Source: Amphiscolops sp. MND2022
Taxonomy: Eukaryota
DNA length: 64,000 nucleotides
NCBI GenBank assembly: GCA_964187785.1
Contig: OZ076409.1
Span: forward strand, 17,672,001-17,736,000
Direction of reading: 5' to 3'
In this document: positions 81 through 44,928 of the stretch, one piece after another
Layout of the letters: every line of letters starts with the position of its first letter
Numbering within the stretch: position 1 is the first letter of the stretch
Program-made: the position numbers and the translations under genes
Notes under the pieces: model-generated
What the model was told of the DNA's origin: nothing
What the model saw: the letters and a program-made list of their open reading frames with translations, nothing else
The model's database searches: none

Positions 81-1040
81 ATGTTGGTTGTGATTCGCCT
101 GTGTGTTTCAGTTGTTGCAAAGTGTCCTCGTTTGTGTTCTGCTGGACGAGATCGGAACTTGTGGTTCGAGCAGGAGTTGGCTGTTTTCCTTCGAGAGTTA
201 TTGTGTCTGGTTGTCGAACCCTCATCGTTACCACCTGATTTTGAAGTCCTCGCCGTGTTGAAATTGCGACTGGGCGAGAGTAAGCCTGTTGACAAGGCCC
301 GGTTTCAAGTGCTGTTCGGCCAGTATTTCCGCTTCGACGTGGTCAACCAGAAGCCTTTCTTTTATAAAGAAGTGCAGAATTTCCTCAGGACTGTGTGCGA
401 GGCTTGTATTGGCGATTATGACCAAGGGTGGGTTAAGCACCTCAGCTTGTTGCCGCTGGATCCTTATGCTATTCAGTCGGTGTCAATGGATCGGCTGACG
501 GACATCCTTGTGGGTACACTTTCTGTCCTCAGTTTTGGAGATCTATGCAGAGGAGACCATGGTGCCATCATCTTACAGCAGTATCGCGAGGTAGTCAACT
601 ACTTCAAGCATCGATGGGAGTCCAATGCTTCGGTGGTGCCAGTTATTGACGATGCCATGTCTTTGTGGTTGTCATATCCTTCGTGGGACCGGTGCCAAGA
701 ATTCCGGGGCATTGTGGATATTCTTTTTGTGGGAATGCTCCATGATTCGTATGCTGCTTATTTTCAAGATGTAGGAGGCACGGCCCTCGATGACAGTATC
801 ATGCTGTCAAGTTTGAACATTATACGAAGCTGGATGTCGAGTGGTTTCGGCGGGCACTCTCGACGCTCGATGATTGGTTTCGTTAGACACTGTAGCACTA
901 CAGACATGCAGGTTTCTCGGTTAACCGATGAAGGCAGAGCTATTCCTTGGGACCAATTGGTTAAGAGGGGGATTGACGAACTACTTGGGCGCTGTGTCAC
1001 TGTTCTGGAGACGACTGGTAGTCTACCTACTCGCCCATGA
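81..1040 (+). CDS. Antisense accessory ORF (319 aa, unknown function) in the 3' internal region of the Gypsy element, convergent with pol
   Basis: Uninterrupted 319-codon ORF with protein-like composition. Its stop is 12 bp from the pol stop at 1053. The opposite strand has only short ORFs here, so it is not a shadow of pol. No recognisable domain. Confidence 0.65.
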   Translation: MLVVIRLCVSVVAKCPRLCSAGRDRNLWFEQELAVFLRELLCLVVEPSSLPPDFEVLAVLKLRLGESKPVDKARFQVLFGQYFRFDVVNQKPFFYKEVQNFLRTVCEACIGDYDQGWVKHLSLLPLDPYAIQSVSMDRLTDILVGTLSVLSFGDLCRGDHGAIILQQYREVVNYFKHRWESNASVVPVIDDAMSLWLSYPSWDRCQEFRGIVDILFVGMLHDSYAAYFQDVGGTALDDSIMLSSLNIIRSWMSSGFGGHSRRSMIGFVRHCSTTDMQVSRLTDEGRAIPWDQLVKRGIDELLGRCVTVLETTGSLPTRP

Positions 1041-7029: not shown

Positions 7030-7042
7030 ACTCCTGTCACCA
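7030..7042 (-). promoter_or_regulatory. Primer-binding site TGGTGACAGGAGT (tRNA-Leu-like)
   Basis: Directly follows the LTR end ...CCGACA. One mismatch from the complement of a typical tRNA-Leu 3' end (TGGTGTCAGGAGT), compared from memory. Confidence 0.65.
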
Positions 7043-8177
7043 TGTCGGAACGACTGTCAGTACTTGTAGTTGCTGAATTTAGTCTGTTCCCCTCTCCATT
7101 AACGGAGGCAAACTGATTAGTTAATATAAGGACTATGCTGGTAAGGTCTCCGATTTATCTATTTATCTCATTAAATCGTTGGTCAATGCTATAATTACTG
7201 CTATTTTGTTGTCTAGTTAATACGTCGTCAGAGTCAAGGTCTACGATTTGGTCTCTGGATAAGATATCAGGGAAACTGGATTCACTTTCATTATCGCTTG
7301 ATCTGTCCATGTTTTCAGCTTCTAATTGTCTATTTTGACTACTTTGAGATCTAGTAGTTACCATGAAAAGTACGAAAGTTCTAAGTTGAATTGAAATGCG
7401 TTAATGTAATGCTAAGGATTGATAATTCGTAAGTAAGATAGTAGGCAACTTGTTCTATCAATAGTTACAATTCGTGAGTGACTTCGGTTTTACCCGATTG
7501 TGTAACTATAAAGGTGTGTCAGCACCTTTTTTTAGCCAATGACATTCGATTTACTAATTGCTATTTAATTGCACTTGACGACTGGTGGTTACAGCCGTGA
7601 CGGGTGATAATCGGCGTTTAATTATTCATGTTTGATCTAGTATGACCGCAAGCACCAGTCATTTTAGCACGCAATTGTCTCAATTACCTCTTAAACTGAG
7701 GCTTTACTACCGTGTATCCTTATCATCATGGTAACTGATTCAATTATCGTTTGGAGGTTAATTACTACAAGGCATTGTACAAATTGCTGATATAAATGAA
7801 TGAAATGTTGTTGTTATGAATGATCGAGTATTCTGGTAATACTTTACATGTAATATAAAAAATGGATGAAGAATGATTAAATGATGAACTATCACGATAG
7901 CTGATGACTGATTGTTCCAGTCTTATATGTGAGAATCACTTATGATGACTGAATATTTCAGTCTTGGTTTCTAACGATGCACAATAACATGAATGAATTT
8001 AGTATTGATGACTGTTAGTTCCAGTTGTTATATTTTCAACTGTATTGTTCGAGGAATAAATTACTGCAATGTATTTTCATGATGATCTGTATTTTAGGGA
8101 GTTTGATGTATGAATTAATATTTTAGAGTTCGTTTAGTTCCTTCATGCTTGGCGGGCATGACATCCGCCCTGCTACA
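7043..8177 (-). repeat. 5' LTR (~1135 bp) of the Gypsy element
   Basis: Minus strand begins TGTAGCAGG and ends CCGACA (TG...CA), then the PBS. The start resembles the TSD-delimited solo LTR (TGTCGCAGG plus a short GC hairpin). The partner LTR is not in the window, so boundaries are inferred. Confidence 0.75.
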
Positions 8178-13499: not shown

Positions 13500-15700
13500 A
13501 GACGGTATGTCAAAAATTTTCCATGAGTCCCATATTTGACCATGAAAAGCTTTTTTCTTGCAGCAGAACTATGTGTTTCATTGAGTTGAGGCAGCTATTA
13601 GAACGACTTGGGGGTGCCTTAAGCCAGGCTGGAACTTTCTATTACCAAAACTTCAGTTTCTAACACACACTGATTTTTCGCTGAACTTTTCCATGTGACG
13701 GAGACTCTATGAACTTTTTTCCACATTCTGGAGCCTCCATGGTGGCTTTTTTCAAGAGTCACTTAGGCTTGGTCACACATTACGAACAACATTAGATAGG
13801 GCAACCCGTGCGAAACGAATGCGTAAGTCCTATATTCACCGAGATGTTGTGAATTCTTGAACTAATTATCAGAAACATAAGAGCTCCTATGTAGGGAAAA
13901 CGGAGAAAACACAAGGTGTTTTTCCGAATATTGTACGCGAGGCAATATATACAAGCCAAGAACAACAGAACATTTTATCAATGATAACAAAAGTGTTTAA
14001 GAGGAGTTTGAACGTTTGCTTTACAAACTCAGCGTCATACACAAGTTGTGGTAATCCTTGTAGAATATCCTTCTCTGTAGAAGTACTTCTGCGTGGCTTC
14101 ATCAGCTCCCTCATTTCGTTTATGGTCAGTCTGTATCGCTCCTTTGAGATGATCGCGATAACGCGCTTCATGGTGGCCCTCAGAGGGTCTTTAGTATTGC
14201 GAAAGTTTCGCAGTTATTCTATCATGTCGGCTCAACGTTCACTTTCGCTGCAATTTCTCGGGAACGATAACTTGTTGTTTCTACTTCTTGGGGTCCCAAG
14301 GCTGGCCAGTGACATGGTAGTCCCCACTGAGGAAGCAATAGACGCAGTATCTGATTTCAGCCGATGTTGAGTAGGTGCCCAACGTCACAGTATCGGCAGT
14401 AGCGTCATCACCAGCTGTTTCTTTTTCTGGTTCTAATTGGAAAGCTTCATTGACCTGGTTTTTGCTATTGGAAGCTGTCCTGAGGGCATATGCTTGGAGC
14501 GTTTCTGTGATGATTTCCCGTTGTCTCCCGAAATAGCTCCAATTGCTGAAACCTCCGACGGAGCAATGTAATGACGGTCCGAAGTTACTTCATTGTAACT
14601 TGTTTTGGATCAAAAATGCTCGCTGCGTCTTGCTGGGCCTGTCACGGATGTGGGTCTCTCAACATTTCGAAGTTTGTTTAGTCTACATTTCTTTCACTTT
14701 ATTATCAAGAAAATTGACATGAAAGCGAGTTCCAGGTATGTGGAACCATTGGAAACGATGGTTTCTTTTTCTGACTGTTTCTGTCAGTTTCGTCAGTACC
14801 TTCAAGCTGGGCAGGCCTTTGAACCTGCTTTTTTGACGAACCTTGGACTCGTTTCGGCCAAAAACTTTGTTCCGCTCCTAGTTCGCTGAAATTTCTCCAA
14901 AAGTTGTACTGAAGCTGACCTTGTGTGCCGGGTTTTATGTCGACGCATCCACTTTACGAACATTTTCAGTGTGGATAGCAGCTTCTGCATCGAACTTTGG
15001 GTATAATCGTTAGATTCTTGGAAAGTAGGAATGATTCCGCCAATGTTGGTGGCGTTTTTCAGTTGGTTGGTATCTCGGAAGATTTTTTAACGAACCATTG
15101 ATGAAACTACCCGATTTCGGTTCACAGAGTACTTACATAAAACCATGGTCAGTTCTGGATAGAATTCCGCGGACGAGTCCTTGTTTTTGACAGTTAGGAT
15201 AATATGCTCAGGAACTTCGTGCAAGTGTCATCTTGCGTTAGTAATTGGAGAGGACAGTTAACAGATTGAACCACCGTGATTCGAGGTTTGGTGAAAGGAC
15301 ATGAAAAAAATTTTGGTGGACATCTTCTAACTCGGGATGCATTTTTACTTACTGGCGAATTTGTTTAACCTTTAATTGCAAATCGTACAAATTCGGAAAT
15401 CGAATTTGCTACCCTGGGTAACCTTTTTCTTGGATTTTCTCCTTTTATGGATTCATTCGAGGTTCATTGTTTGGTCCTTGGCCGTCTGCATGGGGCATTG
15501 ATTTGACAGGAGAGACAGGTCCAAACTAAGATCATGCGCGAAACTTGTTTTCATTTGATGCATCTTTCGGATGTCTTGTTCCTGCATCTGTGGAGTCTGT
15601 TCTCCAACTTGAATCATGGCATCGATTGATGAGGTGTCCACACCTGTTGGTATTTGTTCGGAGGAACTCATATTGATTTTTGGAGGTCTTTGTTTTGTTT
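13500..15700 (-). other. Degenerate coding-like relic of unknown origin, probably transposon-derived
   Basis: GC-richer block with several broken minus-strand ORFs (13887-14171, 14802-14990, 15453-15671). No recognisable motif. Confidence 0.3.
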
Positions 15701-17257
15701 TGGTAGCGACTAATTGCGATTTTAAATGAGGATGATTAACAACAGACTGATTCTCACACGTCTACTCTGAAAGTGATTGTGAATGATTGAATAAAATACT
15801 ATATCAAAATTTCTTGAAGTTCTTGACTCTGGAAGTGTGAATGGATAACCAGTTAGAGTTAATACGCGTTTAAAGTGTGAAAATTCGCACCTTGCTAATT
15901 ACCAGAGTGGTGAAAACTGAAATATGTAATTGTAAACTTAGCTTCTCTGATGTTTCGAAAATCGCGAAATCTTTGAATTGGGGCTGAAAAATTCTAAGCG
16001 AGGAATATGCTCGAATGGGCCCCTACTGAAGCCTCATAAAGTGTCGAGTGCGAAAGTTTACTCTGTGAGCTGAAATGTCAGAAAGACTCCGTTTTTTGAC
16101 ACATAGAGACGCTATGTAGGATTTTGGAAAAGTATTTGAGTACACAGGGTCTTTAATCATCCTGTATCTGATTTTCTTTTCAGACTTGCCAGAACGAAGA
16201 ATTGAAAGAATTCAAAATTGTTGCGATGACCAGAGTTAAATCCTTCAACTCTCATTATCGGTAAAAATTGAATTCTTTCAATTAGTATCCGAAGGGGTGC
16301 CGATTTAAAAAAGGAGAACAGCTTTTTCGGGGTACACCCCGCGAAATTGGGAAATTAACTTTCTTCTTTCTCTTTTTCTACCGTTCATATAACGTATATC
16401 ACAAAAAAAAACCCGCTGATTGTGAATTTTTGACATCAGTTTCGTATGATTTTACGTTTCGCCTTAATGAGCGTGGGGTTCTCGTGTCTGCTAAGATTAA
16501 AACTTTGCATTTTACATTTGATCTTGAATGGCTGTTTCCTGTTATAACATTTAGCGCAAAGAAAATGCGCTTCATCCAAAATATTATCGTTTTTACGACT
16601 ATTTTTGGATGTTGTGAAGACGAAAACAAGTAAATACTTTTTCCTTATCCTCATGCGGAACTCTGTTTTCACAAGTGGATTATCCAGTTTTAAGATCAGT
16701 AGGGGCTTTCCTTTATCAAATATCCCGTTACATTTAATGGCAATCTTTTAAAGAATGATGGTGCCTGTCTTGCCTAAAGAAGTCTTTGCAGATTGTACGA
16801 GAAGTGTTGCAGTGCCACTGCGATTGGTGTTTCCAGGTCCTGTTAGACAGATGTCGTGATAAATATTGTTTTGTATGAAATTGTATTTTTCGAAATAAAT
16901 TCAACTCATGAAAAACTCTGGTGAGGAAACTTCGTGAATAAAGCTTTCGGTTATAACATATCTAGACTTTTGAGTGATGCTTTTGTTCAGCAAGGTTGTT
17001 CAAAACATTGCCGATTTGTACTCTATCAGTAAAATTATCTTCAGAAACCCAAAAGAAAAAGTTCAACGGCGAATTCTTTCAAAAGTGTTGAATTGGCGCT
17101 GTGTTTAGCACATGTTTCAGTTCGAATTATTCAGTATTATGGCCTTTTTGAAACAGAAGGATCTAATTAGTTTCAGACACGTTGAGCGAACCCTCTTTCC
17201 GTTTCGTAATACCAGAAACCTTCTGCCGAAATATGACGTCATAAGTGCATGTTTCAG

Positions 17258-17467
17258 GCGCAACTGTTCCTCAGCACGGACTGTGCACGTGATGTTTGCG
17301 TTTCTGTCCATATTCGACATCGAGACAAAGAGACAGCTGTTCACCACTGAGGTCGTGATCCAGGCACGCTGGGTGGAACCAGCTCTCAAGAAGAACGAGG
17401 TCGTTCATGGCACGCTGTGGAGGGACAAGTGTCCTTCTTACTTGAACATATGGGAGCCCAGATTAAG
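17258..17467 (+). CDS. Exon of Cys-less pentameric ligand-gated ion channel (LBD beta1-beta2 to loop A)
   Basis: TTTCAG| acceptor and AG|GTCAGT donor. VHVMFAFLSIFDIETKRQLFTTEVVIQARWVEPAL...IWEPRL fits the pLGIC pattern V.v.....I.dId...q.f........W.dp.L...W.P.l. Confidence 0.88.
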
Positions 17468-20169
17468 GTCAGTTTGAATCACAACCTAACTAAGTGACCT
17501 CAGATTCGGTATTACCTGAAAAATAATTTTAAAGTGTACGAACATCTGAAATCAGTTTCAAAGTTTATATACAACTAGGTTTACAGATCTAGGTGAATGG
17601 AGCATGGTGTAATGGTTACAGTACTCAGTCTGTATTGTGGCAGGTTCGCATCGGTCTAAACTCGCCATAATTTGACCTTGAACAATTTGATATTGAACAA
17701 GCGTAAAAGTCAATTTTATTTGGCAAGTTTTGAGACGTAGAATGAAAAGTTCAACTGAAAATGTTGATCGTAATTTCCACAAAACATGTAGATGACATCT
17801 TCCAATTTGATTTTCATTCAACATTATTTTTCGTTTCCCCGAAAAAAAAAATATTTTTAGATCAATCAATTTTTTTATCAAAATCAAAATGATGTCTTTT
17901 AACATCATAAAAGTAAGAAGAGGAGTATACAATAGTTTCAAACACTGTCATTTTTCGAATTATTGATTATTTGGGAAAATCCTGAAAATCCAATGTTATT
18001 CATCCATAGCGTAAAACGCATCATATTCTTCAGTGGATTCCCTTGTCTGAGTTTCCAGTGACATACCCAAACTTTTTCCCTAATTCTTCAACCAAATATT
18101 GGAATTAAGACAAAGAACAATATTCGAAGCGTCCATTCCAATCTTGTTACTCCAGTCTTGCTACAAACCTTGGGTTCCATTTAATTTTTGTAAAACCTAA
18201 ATACTATTCAATATTCTTCGAGGTACTTCAATATTTCTTATAAGCTCCATAAATTCCCCTTCATGGGTTCCTTAGTTGACGCTCTAAACTGCAACTCAGT
18301 CGAGTCAAGCCGGGACTTAAATTCATTTCGCGTCAAGTGTCTTTTGATTACTTGGCAACTTAAGCACTCCTCATTTTTGTCTACTTTTTGTCTACACTGG
18401 TATTAACATAGCTATTTCGTCTAGACATATCAACTACCATTGCAATAAACATGCGTGGTAGAATTACTCCGTGGAATCTCCTATTTCTACATGCGTAAAA
18501 GGCCAACAAACGCAAACGATACACAAAATATAAACTCTTATTTCGAAGCTGTGTTTAACAAATGTGAGCAAAAAATGGCATTTCAAAGACGTATACGTAC
18601 AAAGAACGACGACCGACTGATCTCAAATTTCCTTTCGGCTGTCTTTGTTCAATCGAGTTTTTAAATTAGTTTGTTCCTTTAGGTTCCTTTTGAAAACAGT
18701 CGAGATACAAAGGTACCGATGCAAAGATGAAAATTAGCTTTTTGTGAAACGTTTCAGAAATTTTTTTTTGAAAAATCGCTTCATGAAAAAAAAACACAAT
18801 TTCATCTTTTTCCAAACATATTCTTTTTTTTGCAGTTCGCAGGTTCACATGTAACGTCCACCGGCCTGGTGACCAAAAAATTACCAACAAATCGATCAAA
18901 TGTACCGCATAAGAATGGCAAGGTCGGCAGGTACATAAAATCAGTGAAGACGAAAAAAGTGAAAACACACATCCGAAAGCCCCAAAGAATATTCTAACAT
19001 AACAGCCCATTGAAACCCGAAAAGACTAGAATACACATCCGAAGATGCTGATGTAGCCCTACTTCGTGCAAAACTTTGTGATATTGCATACATTGCATAG
19101 AACATTCCGCAGGTCAGGGTCTCGTTGAGGCCTCGATTCTATGCTTCGTTGGCTAAATTGTGATTTATCGAATTGTATTTCTGGTGTTTGCAAATGTCTG
19201 ATGTGATAAATTATATATTTTCACCCAAAACAGCCAATTCAATGTAATTCAACAAATTACTGTTTTGGAAGCTCGGAAGTATTTGATTACGCTCTGAAAT
19301 CTTAGGATACGTTTTTACGTGCTCGAGGGACACTGTGACACTGTTCAAAATTCTCATTTTCCGTTTTTTTTTCAAAAATTTTTCAATGTCTCCAAAGGGT
19401 CCCCCTTCAATTTTGCAACAGGAAGGATGTCAGAAAATTTAGAAATTTCAAATGGTCCTCCTTTTTAGTGGCAGTTCGGTCGTTTGGGTTTTTCGAAAGT
19501 GTTTGGAACCTTTTTTGTGAGTTTTTTTCATTAAAAACGTCCTGATCATATTTTAGAACGTTTGCGTTTTTTCAGCCTTAGGCATAGCGCTGACTTGAGA
19601 CGTTTAGTTATTTAGTGGTTCTACTAGAGTTCGAGCATTCACAGGAATATATGTAAATAGTCACCCTTGTTTTAGTCGTCCTAGAAACGCATGTTAAAAT
19701 GCCAAAAATTGCAAGCGGCTTAGCACTTTCGAATTGTGTCTATGTAACGTCAGGCAAGGGACGTTGCAGAAGTTTTTGAAAATTTCGATCAAAAATTCGA
19801 AATGTGCGGTATCGAACAAGCACATTCAAGATGGCCGACCCGGCAGGTACGAAAACCGTAGAGGAAGCAAAATAAAGTCAAAAAACACCCCACCCCCACC
19901 CAGGAACGTGAATATCCGACATGTAATCACCCAGAAGGCGAGAGAATCAGGAATTGTGCCATCTGACAGCAAAAAGACAGGGTTTCGGCAGAAAAATGCC
20001 AAATGATACCATTGTGCCCCGAAGATGAGGAATGATGCCAGAGGCCAGACTGATGACCAACCCTGATCTGTAATGTTATTGCGGCTTATCCCTGTGTTTT
20101 ATCACCGTTTGCAGGTATTTGGTGATGTTCGATCTACAAGATCTGTATTTTAAAACTTATTCCCCAAAT

Positions 20170-22496: not shown

Positions 22497-23111
22497 CTAT
22501 TTTATTTTTATTGCGGTTCCATAGGTGTCATGAACATTTAAACCAGGAAAATCATTGTCTGACTGATTCCCATCTTGTTCATTTCTTAAGCTGTTTTTTG
22601 CATTTAAGTTTCGCTGAACTTGGGAAGGCAGTTCCGGTCTCTCTGCCGGAACGTCCCATCCTTTTCTGGTCCCGTGTCCCGATCCGGCCATAATAACGTT
22701 TTGGATTTGAGGAAGTACCTGAGTACTTATCGCGTCACTTATGGCCCTCTGTATCTGAACACTCACAGAATTCATCATCTCATCCATTTCCCGTGAAATG
22801 CAGGAATTCAATTCACTTGACAACCTGTTAATCTCAGCACTAGAGTTGGCTGTAACTGAATTTTGATCATATTCGGTATTTGATCTAGGGTGATCATTTC
22901 TCTGATTTCTACTTACATTTCCATTTTCATTCTCAGATTCATTGCTTGCGAAGCTTCTAGACCTTCTAGGCAAGTTACTGTTCATACTACCTTCTCTCTC
23001 TCTTGCGTTAAAGTGATTTTCACCTAACATAATGTCTATGTTCTCGATATCTGACAGTATTTCGAGTCCTCTTGACTTTCTTGCCTTTTTCTGTTTTCTA
23101 GTAGAAGGCAT
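22497..23111 (-). CDS. LTR-encoded ORF (204 aa), probable Gag N-terminal leader, reading out of the solo LTR into flanking DNA
   Basis: MPSTRKQKKARKSR basic start, S/N/E-rich middle and an amphipathic helical segment. Crosses the LTR edge at GAC A|, the same register as gag in the full element at 7043. The last 9 residues come from the flank. Confidence 0.7.
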   Translation of the reverse strand: MPSTRKQKKARKSRGLEILSDIENIDIMLGENHFNAREREGSMNSNLPRRSRSFASNESENENGNVSRNQRNDHPRSNTEYDQNSVTANSSAEINRLSSELNSCISREMDEMMNSVSVQIQRAISDAISTQVLPQIQNVIMAGSGHGTRKGWDVPAERPELPSQVQRNLNAKNSLRNEQDGNQSDNDFPGLNVHDTYGTAIKIK

Positions 23112-24264
23112 TGAAACAATTCCGAATTAACAATGAATTATTCAATACGGAAAATAACAGCGAAACCGTTTGTAATTCAATCTTTACTAGTAGCGTCTCA
23201 AATGAATTGTGTCGCACTCAGGCCGAGTATCAGTATATATACTCATGAGGGGATGACATTCACATACTTTACATTACTAGTCAAGAAAAATGGGGTCATG
23301 TGATTTTTTACTTCACAGGGAATGTCCCGACAACTGCATATTATTAGGGGACATTTAGGGAAAGGCATTCAAAAGTCATTTGATCAAGACAGAGGTATCA
23401 AATCAGTTATTAACTAAGGCATCATATCAAAGCGTCAACAAATGCCTCCGCTCACATTCCTTACAGCGGAGTGTAGTGAAGGCACGTGCCGACACGAGTT
23501 ATTGAGAATGGAATGCATCATCACGTGTATATTGCTTCAATACAATCCAAATATATATGAGAACGCACTTTCATGTTAGAGCCGGATCAGGCCCAAAATT
23601 ATAAAATACACAGCTTTCAAAGAGACATGGTAAGATGGCCTTAATCGTCCATCTTTTTAGGTTAAGATTGTACAGACATTAAAGCGTTACAAATGCTTTA
23701 ATTTAGTTTCAAATCATGGAAAGTTAGCTCCGAGTAATTACTTGCTTAATTAGATAACAAAACACTATAATGCATGAATTGGCCGGAACCGGCCATTTGA
23801 CATGAGTACCAGCAAGCGTGCACTGTGTTAAGTCAAAAGGCCTTATTCGGCCATTATGTAATAAAAGCGCTAATAATTCAAAAGGAACGATATGATTGGC
23901 TGACAATGTACAGCAAGTTACGTCGCCGAGAAAGGACGTTTCCGCACTTGAACACGTTTCCTTCTCGCGATTAACTTGCTTGTTGTTTGTTATTGCATCA
24001 AATCAATCTTGCATTTCAATTCTATTCTACAGTAAATACATCAGCAAACTGATTTGGCCTATCCCAAATCGTAATATTAACAGACTAATATAAACTGCAA
24101 CGTATTGGAAAATGTAATGGTTTGAGGGCAAATATTGTTACTAAAAGTAAGTTTTGAAATACAAAATATACTTGCTCAAAATGTAGGCAAAGTTCCGGGC
24201 AATGTCTCCTGGCTTGTCGCTGTTGTCGTTATTAAAGTACCGTCACAGGCGGCAGCCTGCGACA
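22526..24264 (-). mobile_element. Solo LTR (1739 bp) of a Gypsy-like family
   Basis: TGTC...GACA termini with an exact 5-bp TSD ATAGG at 22521-22525 and 24265-24269. Confidence 0.9.
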
Positions 24265-27200
24265 ATAGGTTAGAAGAACATATTCAAACGAAGACTATGC
24301 AGGAAAAATTGTGAAAATAGACATCTCTGTGGTTACAATTATCCAACTATACTCATGATATAACGAAATTTGATCAATTTCTTCATTTGAGGAAAACAAT
24401 CTTCTGAGGTCAAGTTTTCCCGTTGAACATGAGTTTTTACATGAGTTGGAATCATTTTGCAGCAAATGTGTATTTAGCAATGACTTTCTTTTTGTGAAAG
24501 TCAAGGTTTTATACTTGTTTGTATTTTTTCTCAAAGGAGGTTCTGACACACTCTTTGTCACTAAAAATGCAAAGGAAGCAGTTTCGAATTTCTCTCTAAG
24601 GTGTCGTCTGAAACAAGTGTTTAATTTCAATTTTCTCAGTGTTTTCAGTTTTTTTCAACTGTTCCGTTTAGTTGGGAAAGACGAGAATTTTATGAAAAAT
24701 TTCCGTGAAGAAAAATTTGAGCATCGGAAGTGAAAACTTCACCTGGAACTTACTGTGGCAGAAAGTTTTTATTCACACTTTTATTCTGAACCACAGCTGT
24801 GATGCTGAGGAAAACGTTTACAACAATTGAAGTTCAGTCTTTCTCTGCAGTTCTCTGCAATTTTAAAACGTTCGCACTGCAACATTCATCGAGAAAAATT
24901 TTAAAGACGTCTTTTCAATTTTAGCGCTTCTAAAAACCTTCAAAGAATGACCTTTTTCAGACAGTAAAGATTTGCAAGTGCTGTCACTCAAAACTTAGAA
25001 TAGCGACTATGCTTCATCTGGAAACATGTTACGATGAGAGGAAAATCTAATTTTTTTTTCTGAATTTCTTTCTACTATTTTTTCTCGCAATTTTGTTGCA
25101 ATTAGTCAAAAACGAAGATTCTTCGACGTCACGAATTTTCTCGGGATTGAAATTGAAACATTTGAAAGAACTCATGATATGGAGGCTATCCATGTAAAAT
25201 AAAATTTCCAAATGTCAGTTGTTGTGAATATCAGTCATTTTGAAGCAACTGAACTTTATTAGTCAGGGAGAAAACTTTTGTCGGCAAGTGTACATCATCA
25301 TATATGATCTAGATGTTTTTTGTATGGAGGTCAACCCGGCTCCTCTATCGTTTTCACATTTTGTTTCCCTGGTTGGAATTGCTTGAACTTTTCACATGTT
25401 TTTGTATGTTACCGAGCAAATTTTCTTTGATTTAATAAAATTTTCAAAGAAACGTCCACACAAAAAAACTTCACTGATTCGATCAGGTTTCATTCAGACG
25501 CCGTTCAGGTTACGCTTCGCTTCGCAAATATTGGCAATTTATTCTCGAGTTTTTTTTGTTTTGGGGGCTCCTCTTCTAATAGTGTTTCAACTGCTTTTCC
25601 TGGTCAGGTCTTCCATTCTGTTGATAACCCAGGAAGGAACGATTTTGTTTTGAAATTCAAGTTTCGTCGATGGGCACCGGAAAAATCTGCGACGCAATCA
25701 AGTGGATCCTTGATACAGTACGGCATGTAAATGAGTAGAATGAGTTCATTATTCAATCAAATTTTTCAGCGACAAAAAATCTTTGATAGATAGAATCTCA
25801 TCTAATAGTTACCCTGCTGTTAAAACACACAATTTTTCAGCAATTTCGTCAAAACCTAATGGAGACATGTCATTTTCATTTTCTGCTTTTTAGGAAGATA
25901 TTTAATTGACTTTTCATGTTGGAATACGTCTATTTATGCTCTCAGAAATTCCAATTTAATGTAGAACGTCCTATTTCAAGTGTCTCTCAGTACTGAACAA
26001 TTATGTTTTCCCGTGTTTATTTTCCGGGGACTTTCCGATGCATACAAATTTCTCTTAGGATTGAATATGTTTCCAATTAAAGCTTGATTCCAGCTTCCAT
26101 TTAATTTCCGTTCCTTTTCTTTCCTGAGTTGTCGTCTCAGAAACTAATAACGCTGTTCGAATGATTTATTAGGAATTTTCCTCCAATGCCATTGATTTTC
26201 TATATTCAATTGAATAAGCTGAAAACGCTAAATAATACTCAGATAGTACTCAGTCAGAAGTTAGGATTCACATAATAAACATTTATTTCATTTCATATTT
26301 AAACATTTTCATTTCAAACATGAATATTTCATCTGTTTCAACTAACCGAATCGATTGATCAAAGTAGATACTTTTACTTTTTTGCTGATGAGTAAATCAG
26401 ACATTCGAAATTGTTTTTATGTTAGCATACTTGGCTGAGTAGTACGTTTTCGCTGATCATTTTCAAATAATCGAAAGCATCGTTCTTGAGTGCAATGTGA
26501 ATGTAGTGGAACTTATTGTATACTAGAACTTGAAACAAAACTAGATAGAAGATTTTCTGATAGAACTAGAAGAACATAATCGTTTTTTTTTGTATTTTCA
26601 TGAAAATCTTGGAAGAGTGTTGTAGGACCTAAACATACAAAAAGGGCCTGAGCTAGCTTACACGCTTTCTCGTGCATACTTGATATCTGTAGCTCCACCA
26701 TGGTAGCAATGATTGAAAATTGCAAAACTTTCTTCCAAAAAACACCAGAGTCGATAACTTTTTTCGAACAAAACACTCAAATAATTTAGACGTAACGGTC
26801 CTACATGTTCTCAGTTTCTGTTTGGTAGTGTTTCAAGTTTAACTGTCCCACCTGCCTCAAAAAATTTGTTTTAAAATCTTGATTAACTTCATGGTAAAGG
26901 TGGTAGAACTTTATTATGCAGTTTTAACCGTTATATGCAGTTTTGCAAGAACAGCCAGAGAGAGAACACACACCCTCTGTATCGTACAGAACACACCCGT
27001 GCAGTGCAAACTCGTGCCAGAGAAAGGGCAGAGACGTACTGTATAGCGACATCGACAGTGAATCCGCCCCAAGAATGCGCACACCCCCGAGTTTCGACAG
27101 TAGTGTTATTCAACTTTTGCATGGACTGTTCCGCAGCTCGAATACGTTGAGACCCCATTTCAATGTTTAACTGATAAATCTCTGCGCGTGTCTGTTTTGA

Positions 27201-28128: not shown

Positions 28129-29637
28129 TGTTGACGATAAGCTCAAGCAAAAACAAAGTAGAGGAATCGAATGTTGTATTGATGAAGTGGTAATTGAAAT
28201 GTTTGAAGCAAACTGTTTTTGATAAAGGCTGTCACGCAAAGTGACTAAGGTTAGCAAGATTCAGATTAATGTTTAACAGGTATTGTTTACAAATAAGTCT
28301 ATGATCTTTAATATCTACCACATTTCCCCTTTTACGGGTTTTTACAATTTTTTCCTCAAATTTGAATGTTTAATTAATACAAATGTAAATGTTAATAGCT
28401 TTTACATTTGATTAGCACAACACAAATGTTAAGATTATACAACACGATTAAGCCTGTTTTGGTACAACTAAAATTTCTGCGGTTAGCAGGTTTGTAGTCT
28501 TTTTCTTCTATTCTGCTGTTGTTTTCGAGATCAGATCGATCCCATATCTCTTTGTTGGGACTCTCTTTCTGTCCAGTACCCAGTAGTGGCTGGCCATGGC
28601 TTCTCCACTTCCCATCGAATTGTTGCATTGATGGGGTTTGCGCTGTTCCCCGGGGTTTCTTCATTTTTCTTTTCTTTATCAGTTTCGGTTTTTATTTCAA
28701 AACCTCTTGTTGACTCATCACCTTTACAACCAAAATACAGGTTCGCTTTTTATGCTTGTTTTGGGGGTTTCACTCGAATGAGACTCGTACGCTTTTTGCC
28801 TTTTCACCCCCTCCCCGAAAGCTATGGCGAACTCTAGGGCTTGTTCCGGTTCTTTGGGCTCGGTGCAAAGTTTTTCTTGTACTTTTTTATTGTTCATGTG
28901 CAGAATGAACATATCTAGCACCAAAGTTGTCGATATTTCGCCCAAGTCACATTGTGCTGCCAATCCATTCAAGGCGTGCCAATACTGGTAGAGTGATTCT
29001 CCGGGTTGTTGGTATCTTGAGAAGAAACGATGTCGGTCTAGGGTGCGATTTCTCTTTTTCTGGAAGCATTCTGTACACAAATTTAACATCTCTCCTGCTT
29101 TGAGGTACCATAATGTAGTGTGTGGAAATTTATCTCGGAATTGCTTTCTCGCTGCGCCCCCTAACGATCTGTAAAGTACACTACCAAATTTCTTGTTTGC
29201 AGGGTCTTCGTCCAAGTCCCCAGTAAGGGCTCGAACCCTGGGACTTTGTTCGGTCACTTAACGTGTGAGCTTCGTGATGGATATTGAATATTTTGCCATT
29301 GCGGCAACTTGAAAGATCCACCCACTTGTCCCATTCCGTAGTTGGGTTTTCGTCTGCATCGTGCCAAAACACTGGGAGACCCACCAAATGTGTCAATGAC
29401 GAAGTCTGCACAGAAGAATTTTCTGAATTTGCTCGCAGCGCCATGTTGACGATAAGCTCAAGCAAAAACAAAGTAGAGGAATCGAATGTTGTATTGATGA
29501 AGTGGTAATTGAAATGTTTGAAGCAAACTGTTTTTGATAAAGGCTGTCACGCAAAGTGACTAAGGTTAGCAAAATTCAGACTAAGGTTTAACAGATATTG
29601 TTTACAAATAAGTCTATGATCTTTAATATCTACCACA
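28129..29637 (-). mobile_element. Non-autonomous mini LTR element (194-bp LTRs, gag-only, pol deleted), Gypsy/Mag-like
   Basis: Direct repeats 28129-28322 and 29444-29637 (TG...CA, 4 differences). PBS TGGCGCTGCGAGCA (tRNA-Ser-like) at 29443-29430. PPT AAAAAGGGGAAA abuts the 3' LTR. Flanks CATAC/CAGAG are an imperfect TSD. Confidence 0.92.
28724..29444 (-). pseudogene. gag: Frameshifted, truncated gag of the mini element
   Basis: WDKWVDL and RNRTLDRHRFFSRYQQPGESLYQYWHALNGLAAQCDLG...KVQEKL, a retrotransposon capsid-like Q..GES motif. Confidence 0.8.
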
Positions 29638-32600: not shown

Positions 32601-32689
32601 ATATTTACCATTCCCATGCCTTTGTTGGGGGTGTATTTGCAAACCCATGTTAAGGCGTTTAATGCTTTTTGTACTTCATGACGACCTAA

Positions 32690-33213
32690 CCCTTGTTGAA
32701 ACTGCCTTAACTTTTTGCATGTATTTTATTGTTGGCAGCAACTTTTGTTCTGATTTTCTAAAACTCTTACGGAAACTTTCATGTATTTAACTTCTATCAA
32801 GTTGCTTGAAAGATTCACAAAAGTATTGGCGGCAATTTTAAGCCTTGAAGTTTTGCAGGTTTTATTAAGCAGCAGTTATCATTTTAAAAGCAAAGCAGTT
32901 GCTTTCGGATGGACCGCTAAATTAGTGCAAAACAACTTCAGTCGCGTAATGGACAGCAACTTAGCCTCATGTTCAACGCGCTATTTGAGAAGTGGTGATC
33001 ACGTCAGATGAGTAGTTGAGGAAACAAAGTGTGGATACCAAATGATCGTGTCGGTAATGTAGTGGAATGTGTTTTCAAATTTAATTGCAGTAGTGGAAAA
33101 TGCAGCGTAATGATTTACCATCCGAAGTTCACTGAATTTTCAATTTTTTTAAAAACAAACAGCCTGCAAACAGGCCTGCAGCATGTAAAAAGTTTCTGTA
33201 GTTTCAACTAGGA
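32690..33213 (+). mobile_element. Non-autonomous DNA transposon (CMC/EnSpm-like), family B copy 1
   Basis: TIR CCCTTGTTGAAACT...AGTTTCAACTAGG. Its reverse complement aligns along its length with 43600-44148. Confidence 0.8.
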
Positions 33214-39405: not shown

Positions 39406-40449
39406 CCCTAAGTTACAAAAATCACAACTCTTGCAAAATTCTTAAAAGAATTCTTGTAAGATGTTGTAAGAAAATGCATTTTTAGAATCTAACTCTTGCA
39501 AAAATCTTGCAAGATTTGCATTTTTCTGCTCTGAATGTTACAAAAAATGCATAAATCCGACCATTTTTTTTGCATTTCCTGCCTCAAAAAAATTGAACGG
39601 CTGCAAAAGAAAACTATCTGTACTCGAAAAATGACACAATTGCCCATATTAGAGCATCTAGATTTTATATTATCGGAATGCCTTATTTGCATCATTAGCA
39701 TTGTTTGATGTTATATTGTTGTAAAGCTTTCGCTTACAACATTAAAGCCCTGCGTGGGGTCAGTGCCTCTGAGAGAGCAATGTCCTCCATTCTCAGCAGT
39801 CTCATGACTAGTTGAAATGGGCTGGAGAAGAAATGAAACCGATAGTTGAATTTTGCTAGAATTTTCAGGGTTTTTATAGTTTTCAATATGACATTGCACA
39901 GGTGGTTTTGTAGTATTTTTACTGATTTTCTCCATCACAGTAGCTGACAGCAGGTTCGGGTTAGAACCGTTAGAAAGCCCTTGAAATGTATTTTCAATTG
40001 GTATCATGTTCATATTCCTATCATCATTAGCTGAAGAGTTCTCGGAGTTTTTGTCCGGAGTTTCATAGCTGGAATACGTTATAGTAATTTCTGGGGTAAA
40101 ATTGCATGTAAAATTTTCTTGCTCAAAATTAACAATTTGGAGCCTTTTGCTGGGATCCTGGGACAGTTTGTGCATTGTAAACGGCAACTGTGGCTGTTGT
40201 TGCTGGTAGTTTGATGATTTTTGAAGTTTTGGTCGAATTAACACATCACATTTTTTGTAAAAATTTCTTACCAAAAAAATGCATTTTTTGCAAAAATGTT
40301 ATCAGAATCTTGTAAGAAATGTTCGACATTGTAACAAATTTGCAAAATTTGCGATTCTTGTACAAACTTGTAAGATTCTTGCAAGAAATGCAAAGCTGAC
40401 GAGAATTTCGGAAGAATTTTGCAAGATTTGTGATTCTTGTAACCTAGGG
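39406..40449 (-). mobile_element. Non-autonomous DNA transposon (CMC/EnSpm-like), family A copy 1
   Basis: TIRs CCCTAAGTTACAAAAATCACAA / TTGTGATTCTTGTAACCTAGGG, subterminal TCTTGCAAGA repeats, 2-bp TSD TT. Confidence 0.85.
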
Positions 40450-42155: not shown

Positions 42156-43061
42156 CCCTAGGTTACAAGAATCACAAATCTTGCTAAATTCTTCCGAAAT
42201 TATTGCCAACTTTACATTTCTCACAAGAATTTTACAAGTTTGTACAAAAATCGCAAATTTTGCAAATTTGTTACATTTTTTTACAAGACTCCGATAATAC
42301 TTTTGCAAAAAATGCATTTTTCGTAAGAAATGCTTCCAAAAAATGTGATATGTTATGTCGACCAAAATTTTAAAAATCATCAAACTACCAGCAACAACAG
42401 CCACAGTTGCCGTTTACAATGTACAGACTTCTCAGGATCCTAGCAAAAGGGTGAAAATGGTCAATTTTGAGCAAGAAGAAATTACATGCAATTTTACCCC
42501 AAAAATTACTATAACGTATTCCGGTAACCCACCACCAAACAACAATGCATTAATTTACACCAATGCAAAGGCAGCGTCTGACAGCTCAAATTACGACTCA
42601 ATGGGTAACTCTGGTTCAAAAATCGTTTCAAGCGACACACCCAATCTTGGAATCGAGCAAGTAAAGGGAAAAAACCCACTTCAGGAAAGTCAGTCTGAAA
42701 ACTATAATTCTACATCTCCAAGTGGTGAAAGTTCTGGAGCTATTACTGTTGCGAACTAAATGCATCGTACTACGCTTCTCAATTCTAGATGTTCTAGAGT
42801 AGAGAAGCTTTAATATGGGCAATTGTGTCATTTTTCCCGTTCAGATCGGTTTTTTAGCAGCCGTTTAATTTTTTGAGGCTGAAAATGCCATTTTTGTAAG
42901 AAATATGTCAGATTTATGCATTTTTTGTAAGATTCTGAGCAGAAAATGCAAATCTTGCAAGATTTTTGCAAGAGTTAGTTTCTAAAAATTCATTTTCTTA
43001 CAAGATCTTACAAGAATTCATGTAAGAATTTTGCAAGAGTTGTGATTTTTGTAACTTAGGG
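42156..43061 (+). mobile_element. Non-autonomous DNA transposon (CMC/EnSpm-like), family A copy 2, inverted relative to copy 1
   Basis: TIRs CCCTAGGTTACAAGAATCACAA / TTGTGATTTTTGTAACTTAGGG, 2-bp TSD TG. Confidence 0.85.
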
Positions 43062-43128
43062 TGCAAAAGCGAAACATCCATGATGTTCGGTTTCAAAAAT
43101 CGATGATTTTTACTGTTTTTTTTGTTAG

Positions 43129-43354
43129 ATTAAAAAATCTAGAGGAAGTGAAACGAGGGAGAGACGATAGGTGGTACGTAGTCAACTGGCCCCCCAATCA
43201 GGACTACGCGGAGATCATCTACAGACGCAAAGTGAGGGGCGCCTTCTACCAGAAGATGGAGTTGCAGCATTTCCCCGTCGACGTGCAGGCAATCAGTGTA
43301 CAGGTGAACACGGACCTCGACAACTCAGAAATATCACTCAAGGAGGATGACCAG
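43129..43354 (+). CDS. Exon of Cys-less pLGIC containing the beta6-beta7 (Pro) loop
   Basis: Poly-T TTAG| acceptor and CAG|GTAACT donor. The phase-2 join gives IWEPRLRLKN. YRRKVRGAFYQKMELQHFPVDVQAISVQV has the FPxDxQ motif without flanking cysteines. Confidence 0.9.
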
Positions 43355-43599
43355 GTAACTGATGACGTCACTGAATTTATAATGATTTCAACAGTTTGTT
43401 TGATCGTACGATACAAATGTTTGGGTGTTTGCAGATCGTCAGGGTTGTTCCAGTAAAACAAAATATAGTTCTCATTTTCGGTTCACAATTGAGCGCGTTT
43501 GAACCTTATTTGGGTTGTTCGTCGTACCTAAAATAGAAATAATAGTATATGTGGACGTAATCCTAAATAAATAGGGCGACCTAAATAAATAGAGCAGTA

Positions 43600-44148
43600 C
43601 CCTAGTTGAGACTGCAGGAACTTTTTACATGCTGCAGGCCTGCATGCAGGGTAATTGTTTATAAAACCTAGAAAATTCAGGGTAATTCAGGTGGTAAATC
43701 TTGTAGAATTACACTGCATTTTCCACTACTGCATTTAAATTTGAAAATAGATACAACATCATCACCGACACGACCTTATTGTATTTACAATTTGCTTTCT
43801 CAACTACTCATCTGATGTGATCACCGCGTCTCAAATAGGACGCTAAACATGACGGTATATTGCAGTTTATTAGGTGACTGAAGTAATTTTGCATTAAAAT
43901 GGCTGTTAAACTGAGAGCAATTTATTTGCTTTTAAAATTAGAACTGCTTCTTAATGAAACCTGCAAAACTTCAAGGCGTAAAATTGCCGCCAAAACTTTG
44001 ATGAATCTTTCAAGCAGCTTGATAAAAGTCGAATACAACAGGTAAATATTTTCTCATTAAAGTTTCCGTAAGAGTTTTAGAAAATCATAATAAAAGTTGC
44101 TGGCAACATTAAAGTACATGCAAAAAGTTCAAGAAGTTTCAACAAGGG
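43600..44148 (-). mobile_element. Non-autonomous DNA transposon (CMC/EnSpm-like), family B copy 2
   Basis: CCCTAGTTGAGACT...AGTTTCAACAAGGG, 2-bp TSD TA. Inverted homolog of 32690-33213. Confidence 0.82.
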
Positions 44149-44928
44149 TAGGGACAGTCGGACTAGAAGTGGACCTAAATTAATAACCAGTATAGCGCAC
44201 AGTGGACCAATTAGTGATGTCACAGGTATGAATGAAGTCAAGAGGTAATAAACCGGACTTATCAAGTATCGTCTAGTATAGTTAGAAAAGGGGTATTGAA
44301 GCAATGAGGACATGAGTCTGACAGTAACGTATTGCAATCTATTCGGTTAAGAAATGTAATGTAACGTGTTAAAAATACTTGTTTGAAGACACTCCTTCTG
44401 TCGCCTATCTGTCGCATTTCAATTTGCAGTCGGCGCTTTTTGAAGAAAACAACCAACTACAGCAGTTGTTTTTTTAAGAACATCGAACTGACAGACTTCT
44501 ATGAGCAATTCTAAGCAACTACCAAGTTCTAACTTAGTAACCTATAACTGCCAATTGACCTACAGGTTGAAAACGGGTTTCTTGAGGTCGGAGAAGCAGG
44601 AGTACATGGGTTCGAGTCTCGCATTAAACCGAATTTATTAATGCTTGCAAAAGTAAGGGGGAGACAAAAAGGGGAATTTTTGGCATTATGCGACTTTTTT
44701 CTGATTTTTTAAAAACCGAAATGTTCAGCAGAAACCTCATGCCCTAATGTTCAGCAGAAGCAAAACGTTCTTCGAGCATAGATGACCACTTTAGATGTTT
44801 TCGGCATCATGCGACAAACCGAAATTTAAAAACACGCTGAATTTATATGAAAAATTTGCCAAACTTTGTTTTTCTGTAGAGAAAAATCGTTTTCGGAGCC
44901 TTGAGGGTGAACTCTTTGTTCATTTCTG

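Follow-up and report, generated by a model that had tools for sequence, protein, structure and literature searches.

What does a long open reading frame (ORF) mean inside a solitary long terminal repeat (LTR), from which it runs out into host DNA? The question is raised by a stretch of 64,000 nucleotides from Amphiscolops sp. MND2022 (assembly GCA_964187785.1, contig OZ076409.1, positions 17,672,001 to 17,736,000), referred to here as the window. A 1739-bp unit on its minus strand (22526-24264), which starts with TGTCGCAG, ends in CATGACA and has TG...CA termini, carries neither a primer-binding site (PBS) nor any attached internal sequence. A preliminary description of the window had presented this unit, with its length, its ends and the exact ATAGG duplication on both sides, as a solo LTR. 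It is indeed one, derives from a Ty3/gypsy element and shares 96% identity with the nearest LTRs that belong to full-length elements. Its left flank is essentially single-copy, matching itself and one 50-bp stretch at 84%, and its right flank matches itself only. The locus is very probably a young solo LTR of an abundant Ty3/gypsy family whose Gag starts 195 codons inside the LTR, the copy itself being a likely unselected remnant that has not yet been broken. The features on which this reading draws are collected in Table 1.

The ORF (23111-22497, minus strand) encodes 204 amino acids. Its portion within the LTR measures 586 nt, that is 195 codons plus one A, and its last nine residues, TYGTAIKIK, are encoded by the duplication and the host flank. 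Both the ORF of about 195 codons reading out into host DNA and its exit from the LTR at GAC A/ (the slash marking the LTR end here and below), in the same register as an element at 7043, were thus found as previously described.

The origin of the frame lies in full-length parents. The 1.07-Gb genome holds a large family of such elements, with at least 40 DNA matches and at least 150 protein matches; the first 25 nt of the LTR have 3475 exact genome matches (control, 0), and many family LTRs are paired at a spacing of about 14 kb. The 5' LTR ends are directly followed by TGGTGACAGGAG, which is complementary to a tRNA 3' end over a 12-nt match; the tRNA end pattern has 923 genome matches (control, 0), and tRNA-Leu(CAG) was called at one of six scanned loci. 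The LTR frame crosses the primer site as GAC A/TG GTG (protein HD/MVTG) into Gag; of the 5' copies picked by protein, 18 of 20 carry it across the PBS, as do 16 of 25 5' LTRs picked by position. A search for parents with a PBS and an in-frame gag, which the preliminary description had proposed as its check, found a single frame running from the LTR ATG through the PBS and the capsid to two zinc knuckles, with a Gag of 562-577 amino acids in seven of the 20 protein-picked 5' copies. In Pfam, parent Gag ORFs matched a zinc knuckle and DUF1759, both below cut-off, and pol matched a protease (below cut-off), a reverse transcriptase and an integrase, in that order; the best PDB matches of the reverse transcriptase were foamy virus and Ty3. 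The predicted capsid identity rests on the weak Pfam matches, on the top ESM Atlas match, a Ty3_capsid/Arc-like cluster (0.95), and on weak Foldseek matches to the capsids of PNMA2, HERV-K and Arc (E 0.014 at best). The gag end carried A AAA AAC, which we take to be a -1 slippery site, in all five copies checked, and many 1738-codon pol frames occur among the 150 protein matches listed. The family is still young and abundant, and the solo ORF is the N-terminus of a Ty3/gypsy Gag of about 570 amino acids.

Selection on this Gag head was assessed between lineages and after insertion separately. In 362 non-independent pairs of 40 copies at 10-22% divergence, the leader (the LTR-encoded part of Gag) gave a synonymous rate (dS) of 0.73, a non-synonymous rate (dN) of 0.067 and a ratio of 0.09, and third codon positions carried 65% of the leader differences. 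Residues 1-32 (dN/dS 0.02) and 85-145 (0.06) were the most constrained parts, and the internal, capsid-side Gag of comparable pairs had a dN/dS of about 0.05. Inherited ORF lengths of 568, 586, 592 and 643 nt were observed, with the frame kept in 13 of 13 LTR pairs. The ORF is therefore not a product of chance, given the low between-lineage ratio: the LTR-encoded Gag head is real, strongly selected between lineages and clade-wide.

After insertion, by contrast with this selection between lineages, the Gag-head frame decays neutrally. The paired LTRs of an element come to differ only once it has inserted, and 24 pairs were compared on this basis, comprising 14 of 20 position-picked pairs and 10 DNA-picked 5'-3' pairs; the other six position-picked pairs were dropped, either for want of a recognisable LTR end or ATG or because their LTRs did not belong to one element. 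The 24 pairs held 29 synonymous and 114 non-synonymous differences, six stops and 12 frameshifts, giving a dN/dS of 1.05 (p 0.92 against neutrality). Protein-picked pairs had given a ratio of 0.64, a value biased by selection on protein similarity. Private-change ratios to the nearest neighbour (0.23-0.33 for solos, 0.21-0.26 for 5' and 3' LTRs) were rejected as a post-insertion measure, neighbours often being other subfamilies, and the 5'-3' pairs were used instead. Of 80 LTR starts taken by position, one proved to be internal and 15 fell into no class; among the others, the frame was intact in six of 15 solos and in 16 each of the 24 3' LTRs and the 25 5' LTRs. Solos are no more intact than the other LTRs (6/15 vs 32/49, Fisher p 0.13-0.18), and the idea that they selectively retain the ORF finds no support here (p 0.13 with a post-insertion dN/dS of 1.05).

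The same holds for the copy in the window. Its private changes comprise six non-synonymous and one synonymous, three of them at residues present in 0 of 85 other copies, and the chance of an intact frame after seven substitutions is about 0.43 (0.12 disruptions per substitution); its intactness is what chance decay gives. The read-out tails of 63 intact solo or 3' copies have a median of nine codons, and random flank gives 14. Neither the intact frame nor the read-out needs selection, because intactness is about 0.43 by chance and the tails are no longer than random. The earlier proposal that such LTRs could make small basic or helical proteins or chimeric ORFs is supported in the basic, helical character and not supported in meaningful chimeras. 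Purifying selection after insertion at a fixed locus, which would mark a domesticated gag gene of the Arc/PNMA type, was not found.

The layout extends well beyond this family. The junction ACA/TGGTGACAGGAG occurs 7449 times in the genome (control, 1), and 23 of the first 30 junctions have at least 100 in-frame codons upstream from an ATG (range 103-215), the other two frames being open for at most 82 codons. Fourteen junction Gags fall into five capsid groups with identity down to 26%, a tree that covers 14 of the 30 junction proteins, L118, L127, L130, L131 and truncated ones having been missed by the motif filter. The LTR-encoded Gag leader, which had been suggested to recur in a second family, is shared with the family of the element at 7043 and with at least five capsid groups. 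The leader of the 7043 element begins MVTTRSQ at 7364 and has an in-frame stop at codon 70; in its sister copy L116 the frame is open and the protein 89% identical. The little similarity previously noted between this leader and that of the solo LTR proved to be none detectable (BLASTP best E 0.69, profile-profile probability 0.3%), and most leaders seen share, by eye, a basic tip together with a single amphipathic helix. Divergence of the leader is only weakly correlated with that of the capsid (rho 0.28), so that the two halves appear to have been reassorted. All regions are mosaic, however, and no special role of the first strand transfer emerged from this comparison; U3 did not, as had been predicted, follow the capsid more closely than the leader did.

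Outside this genome, two metagenome loci were obtained from 591 candidates. One of them, L228, has the same layout with 128 codons and the same junction; it resembles P0138 and may come from the same host lineage, so it does not represent the layout in an unrelated host. None of 74 viral-contig candidates was retained. The ESM Atlas gave no usable match to the leader and Pfam only weak, scattered matches (best YpjP, 10 of 28 members, E 0.001). The leader has 2077 database matches, of which the 120 listed are unnamed records at 55-91% identity, and the top 150 matches of a 50%-cluster search were uninformative on other taxa.

It is suggested that transcription of the element would start about 25-30 nt past a conserved TATA-like box, which in most long-leader families is found 110-150 nt upstream of the ATG, at a distance of 688-776 nt from the LTR end. 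R and U5 together would then span about 660-750 nt, the untranslated leader would be about 100 nt long, and the first start encountered would be the LTR ATG. R itself cannot be placed, because no AATAAA is conserved: none is present in the window LTR, and at most eight matches fall in any 50-nt bin among 36 distinct leaders. The TATA box also lies within an inverted repeat (window 23200-23270, minus strand, with equivalents in L119, L181, L203, L205 and L211), and 14 of 26 leaders fold around it with a z of -2 or lower. The arms of this repeat pair at -17.2 kcal/mol with their own partner versus -12.6 when swapped (0 of 10000 permutations, relatedness not being controlled), and RNAalifold found no consensus hairpin around the box; the repeat is possibly a 3'-end RNA signal. 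As a further observation on this LTR, its first 24 nt (24241-24264, minus strand) are self-complementary and common to subfamilies otherwise diverged in U3.

In AlphaFold2, the LTR-coded part is predicted to be disordered except for a long helix at residues 85-143. When residues 82-146 were modelled in three copies, the result was a parallel bundle in register with a score of 0.44, against 0.01 for the best of three controls; the runs agreed in at least 94% of contacts, and the predicted local distance difference test (pLDDT) score was 76. The mark applied to this trimer was calibrated on two copies only: among microbial proteins, 21 of 30 solved homo-pairs reached it and none of 23 single chains did. 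The corresponding figures for eukaryotes were 17 of 29 and none of 30, but only one of seven that lacked an older solved relative reached it. The modelled trimeric coiled coil supports a putative oligomerising, matrix-like domain, which would consist of a basic tip and, between disordered linkers, the coiled coil and would aid Gag oligomerisation. Reverse transcription would place the Gag-head stretch into both LTRs, and recombination between LTRs would leave solos with a promoter and a Gag head but no stop codon of their own.

Several points weigh against this reading. The TATA box is absent at that position in several short-leader families, and the start site, the poly(A) site and translation of the element are inferred. 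The model of the whole Gag is weak, with a predicted template modelling (pTM) score of 0.28 and a best Foldseek E of 0.014. The solo sample is small (15), and 15 of the 80 LTR starts were not classed. Neutrality comes from paired LTRs, the nearest-neighbour test on solos being confounded by subfamily divergence.

Among other explanations, the preliminary description had raised the possibility that solo LTRs supply dominant-negative Gag fragments. Solo and 3' LTRs would then be transcribed and the Gag-head fragment would co-assemble with full-length Gag through the coiled coil and damp transposition, at a dose rising with LTR number. According to PMC4974528, Ty1 restricts its transposition in a related manner: it encodes p22/p18, a shortened form of its own Gag that interferes with the assembly of particles. 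In p22 the truncation is N-terminal and the protein comes from an internal mRNA, whereas an Amphiscolops fragment would hypothetically be an N-terminal head made from LTR promoters. Each LTR keeps the TATA box, the leader and the ORF, the in-register trimer model of residues 82-146 outscores its controls, and a rough extrapolation from 3475 LTR starts, about 16 solos per 100 and six of 15 intact gives a few hundred intact solos. However, there is no excess of intact solos, decay in LTR pairs is neutral, the family is still young and abundant, and the fragment has no stop codon of its own or conserved poly(A) signal, so that its 3' ends would depend on the flank. A dominant-negative fragment is plausible on the structural model and has no support from selection, and damping by this route is considered unlikely. 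A wider version, in which the 600-750 nt of R/U5 of the whole clade would encode a trimer-forming domain and hundreds of LTR fragments would poison assembly as a copy-number brake that strengthens with solos, is just as doubtful.

It is slightly less probable again that Gag is mainly made from the Met at the LTR/PBS junction, the LTR frame providing a longer second isoform or a cleaved accessory piece. M-V-T-G is invariant in 24 of 24 aligned Gags, but the ATG is forced by the LTR end CA and the PBS TGG, and partly by the search pattern, and its invariance carries little information. The weak correlation of leader and capsid divergence and the leaders of distant families, which cannot be aligned, would agree with a separate piece; against it, no stop separates the leader and capsid parts, about 100 nt lie between the inferred RNA start and the upstream ATG, and constraint on the leader nearly equals that on the capsid side. 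Recruitment of the ORF at 22497-23111 as a host or chimeric new gene is very improbable, for although the frame is open and the site unique, only nine codons derive from the host, private changes run six to one in favour of non-synonymous, and intactness after seven substitutions is readily given by chance (about 0.43).

Compared with known systems, the Amphiscolops family resembles animal Ty3/gypsy elements (Metaviridae) in its TG...CA ends, 5-bp duplication, tRNA PBS, gag with CCHC knuckles and protease, reverse transcriptase, integrase order, and differs from them in a Gag that begins deep in the LTR. As described in PMC3601003, LTRs of animal Metaviridae have a conserved AATAAA and a weak TATA, the reverse of the Amphiscolops family, in which TATA is conserved and AATAAA is not. 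Ty1 (Ty1/copia, Pseudoviridae) has its PBS inside the GAG ORF at RNA nt 94-104, according to PMC4974528. The PBS within the Gag ORF and a Gag start before the primer site are shared by the Amphiscolops family. This position in Ty1 leaves at most about 30 codons, presumably about 14, compared with 100-215 codons and a predicted folded domain here; the primer is tRNA-Leu rather than initiator Met, and pol is ordered protease, reverse transcriptase, integrase rather than protease, integrase, reverse transcriptase. The family is like Ty1 in layout and is not Ty1/copia. The retroviral LTR ORFs (mouse mammary tumour virus sag, HIV nef, foamy virus bel) are separate accessory genes in U3; as in the Amphiscolops family, a protein is coded within the LTR and stays behind in solo LTRs, whereas the Amphiscolops ORF lies downstream of the TATA box and is fused to Gag. 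In a literature search of partial coverage, which did not extend to Repbase-type records, no paper dealt with a long Gag portion encoded by the LTR of gypsy elements, and the accessible part of PMC6844567 holds nothing further on the start.

Table 1. Coordinates of the solo LTR, its ORF and the neighbouring element used for comparison (positions in the window).
Feature	Position	Strand	Evidence
Solo LTR, 1739 bp, TG...CA	22526..24264	-	Ends and duplication; 96% identity to LTRs of full-length elements
Target-site duplication ATAGG, downstream side of LTR	22521..22525		Flanks LTR
Target-site duplication ATAGG, upstream side	24265..24269		Flanks LTR
Conserved LTR 5' end with self-complementary stretch	24241..24264	-	25-nt pattern, 3475 exact matches, control 0
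TATA-like box, 130 nt upstream of ATG (inferred promoter, followed closely by the U3/R boundary)	23234..23241	-	Positional conservation, -150..-110
LTR-encoded Gag N-terminus, 195 codons, in inferred R/U5	22527..23111	-	In frame with Gag of parents; between-lineage dN/dS 0.09
Residues 1-32: basic patch (7 K/R in residues 1-15) and conserved SD..N.D.M.G motif	23016..23111	-	dN/dS 0.02
Long amphipathic helix of residues 85-143, a parallel coiled-coil trimer in the model	22683..22859	-	AlphaFold2; dN/dS 0.06; trimer score 0.44 vs best control 0.01
Continuation of the ORF through the duplication into host DNA, 9 codons and stop	22497..22526	-	Equals family median
LTR-borne Gag leader of neighbouring element, 107 codons, one in-frame stop in window copy	7043..7364	-	Comparison
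tRNA-Leu PBS of neighbouring element, read as part of Gag (MVTG)	7030..7042	-	Comparison

Other features of the full-length elements were observed. A polypurine tract was missing from the 30 nt examined before 20 of 24 3' LTRs; these 20 are preceded by a pyrimidine-rich run and CCCGCAG-like bases that resemble a splice acceptor (e.g. L032, L186, L188), and GGGGAG is kept before four of the 24, from sister subfamilies. In tandem elements (L007/L034, L003, L088, L223) the shared internal LTR has the 3' junction before it and the PBS after it. In copy L133 the frame meets protease-like sequence within about 60 codons of the PBS, the capsid apparently being missing. Antisense ORFs (L031:8652-9623 and L032:2755-5258, both minus strand; window 81-1040, plus strand) occupy part of the roughly 6 kb that separates pol from the 3' LTR, and Pfam gave no convincing match to them. 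A tandem array (G000:C8:35587000-35638200 and beyond) is formed of tRNA-Leu-like 3' ends that match the primer, and it holds most of the 100 matches listed. Elsewhere in the window are a ligand-gated ion channel exon (17109-17477, plus strand; Neur_chan_LBD, E 3.5e-6), an inverted duplication, possibly of gene exons (32689-33212 and 39406-40449 vs 42156-44149), a degraded retroelement piece (13981-15700, minus strand) with an antisense-type ORF and a PBS-like site at 14650, and a gag-like fragment (28724-29257, minus strand) with a weak Retrotrans_gag match.

The single solo copy is itself ordinary and adds little; the significance lies in the family. A coding R/U5 breaks the usual assumption that these regions are short and non-coding, and about a third of Gag, present in both LTRs, would already be contained in the first DNA strand that reverse transcription makes, at a strand length of about 700 nt. 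If Gag is annotated from the Met at the PBS, a domain under strong selection is lost, and gene-finding programs will predict many spurious 200-residue genes at LTRs. The system contrasts selection during replication with drift after insertion, and it offers a testable route by which Gag fragments may bring about self-limitation.

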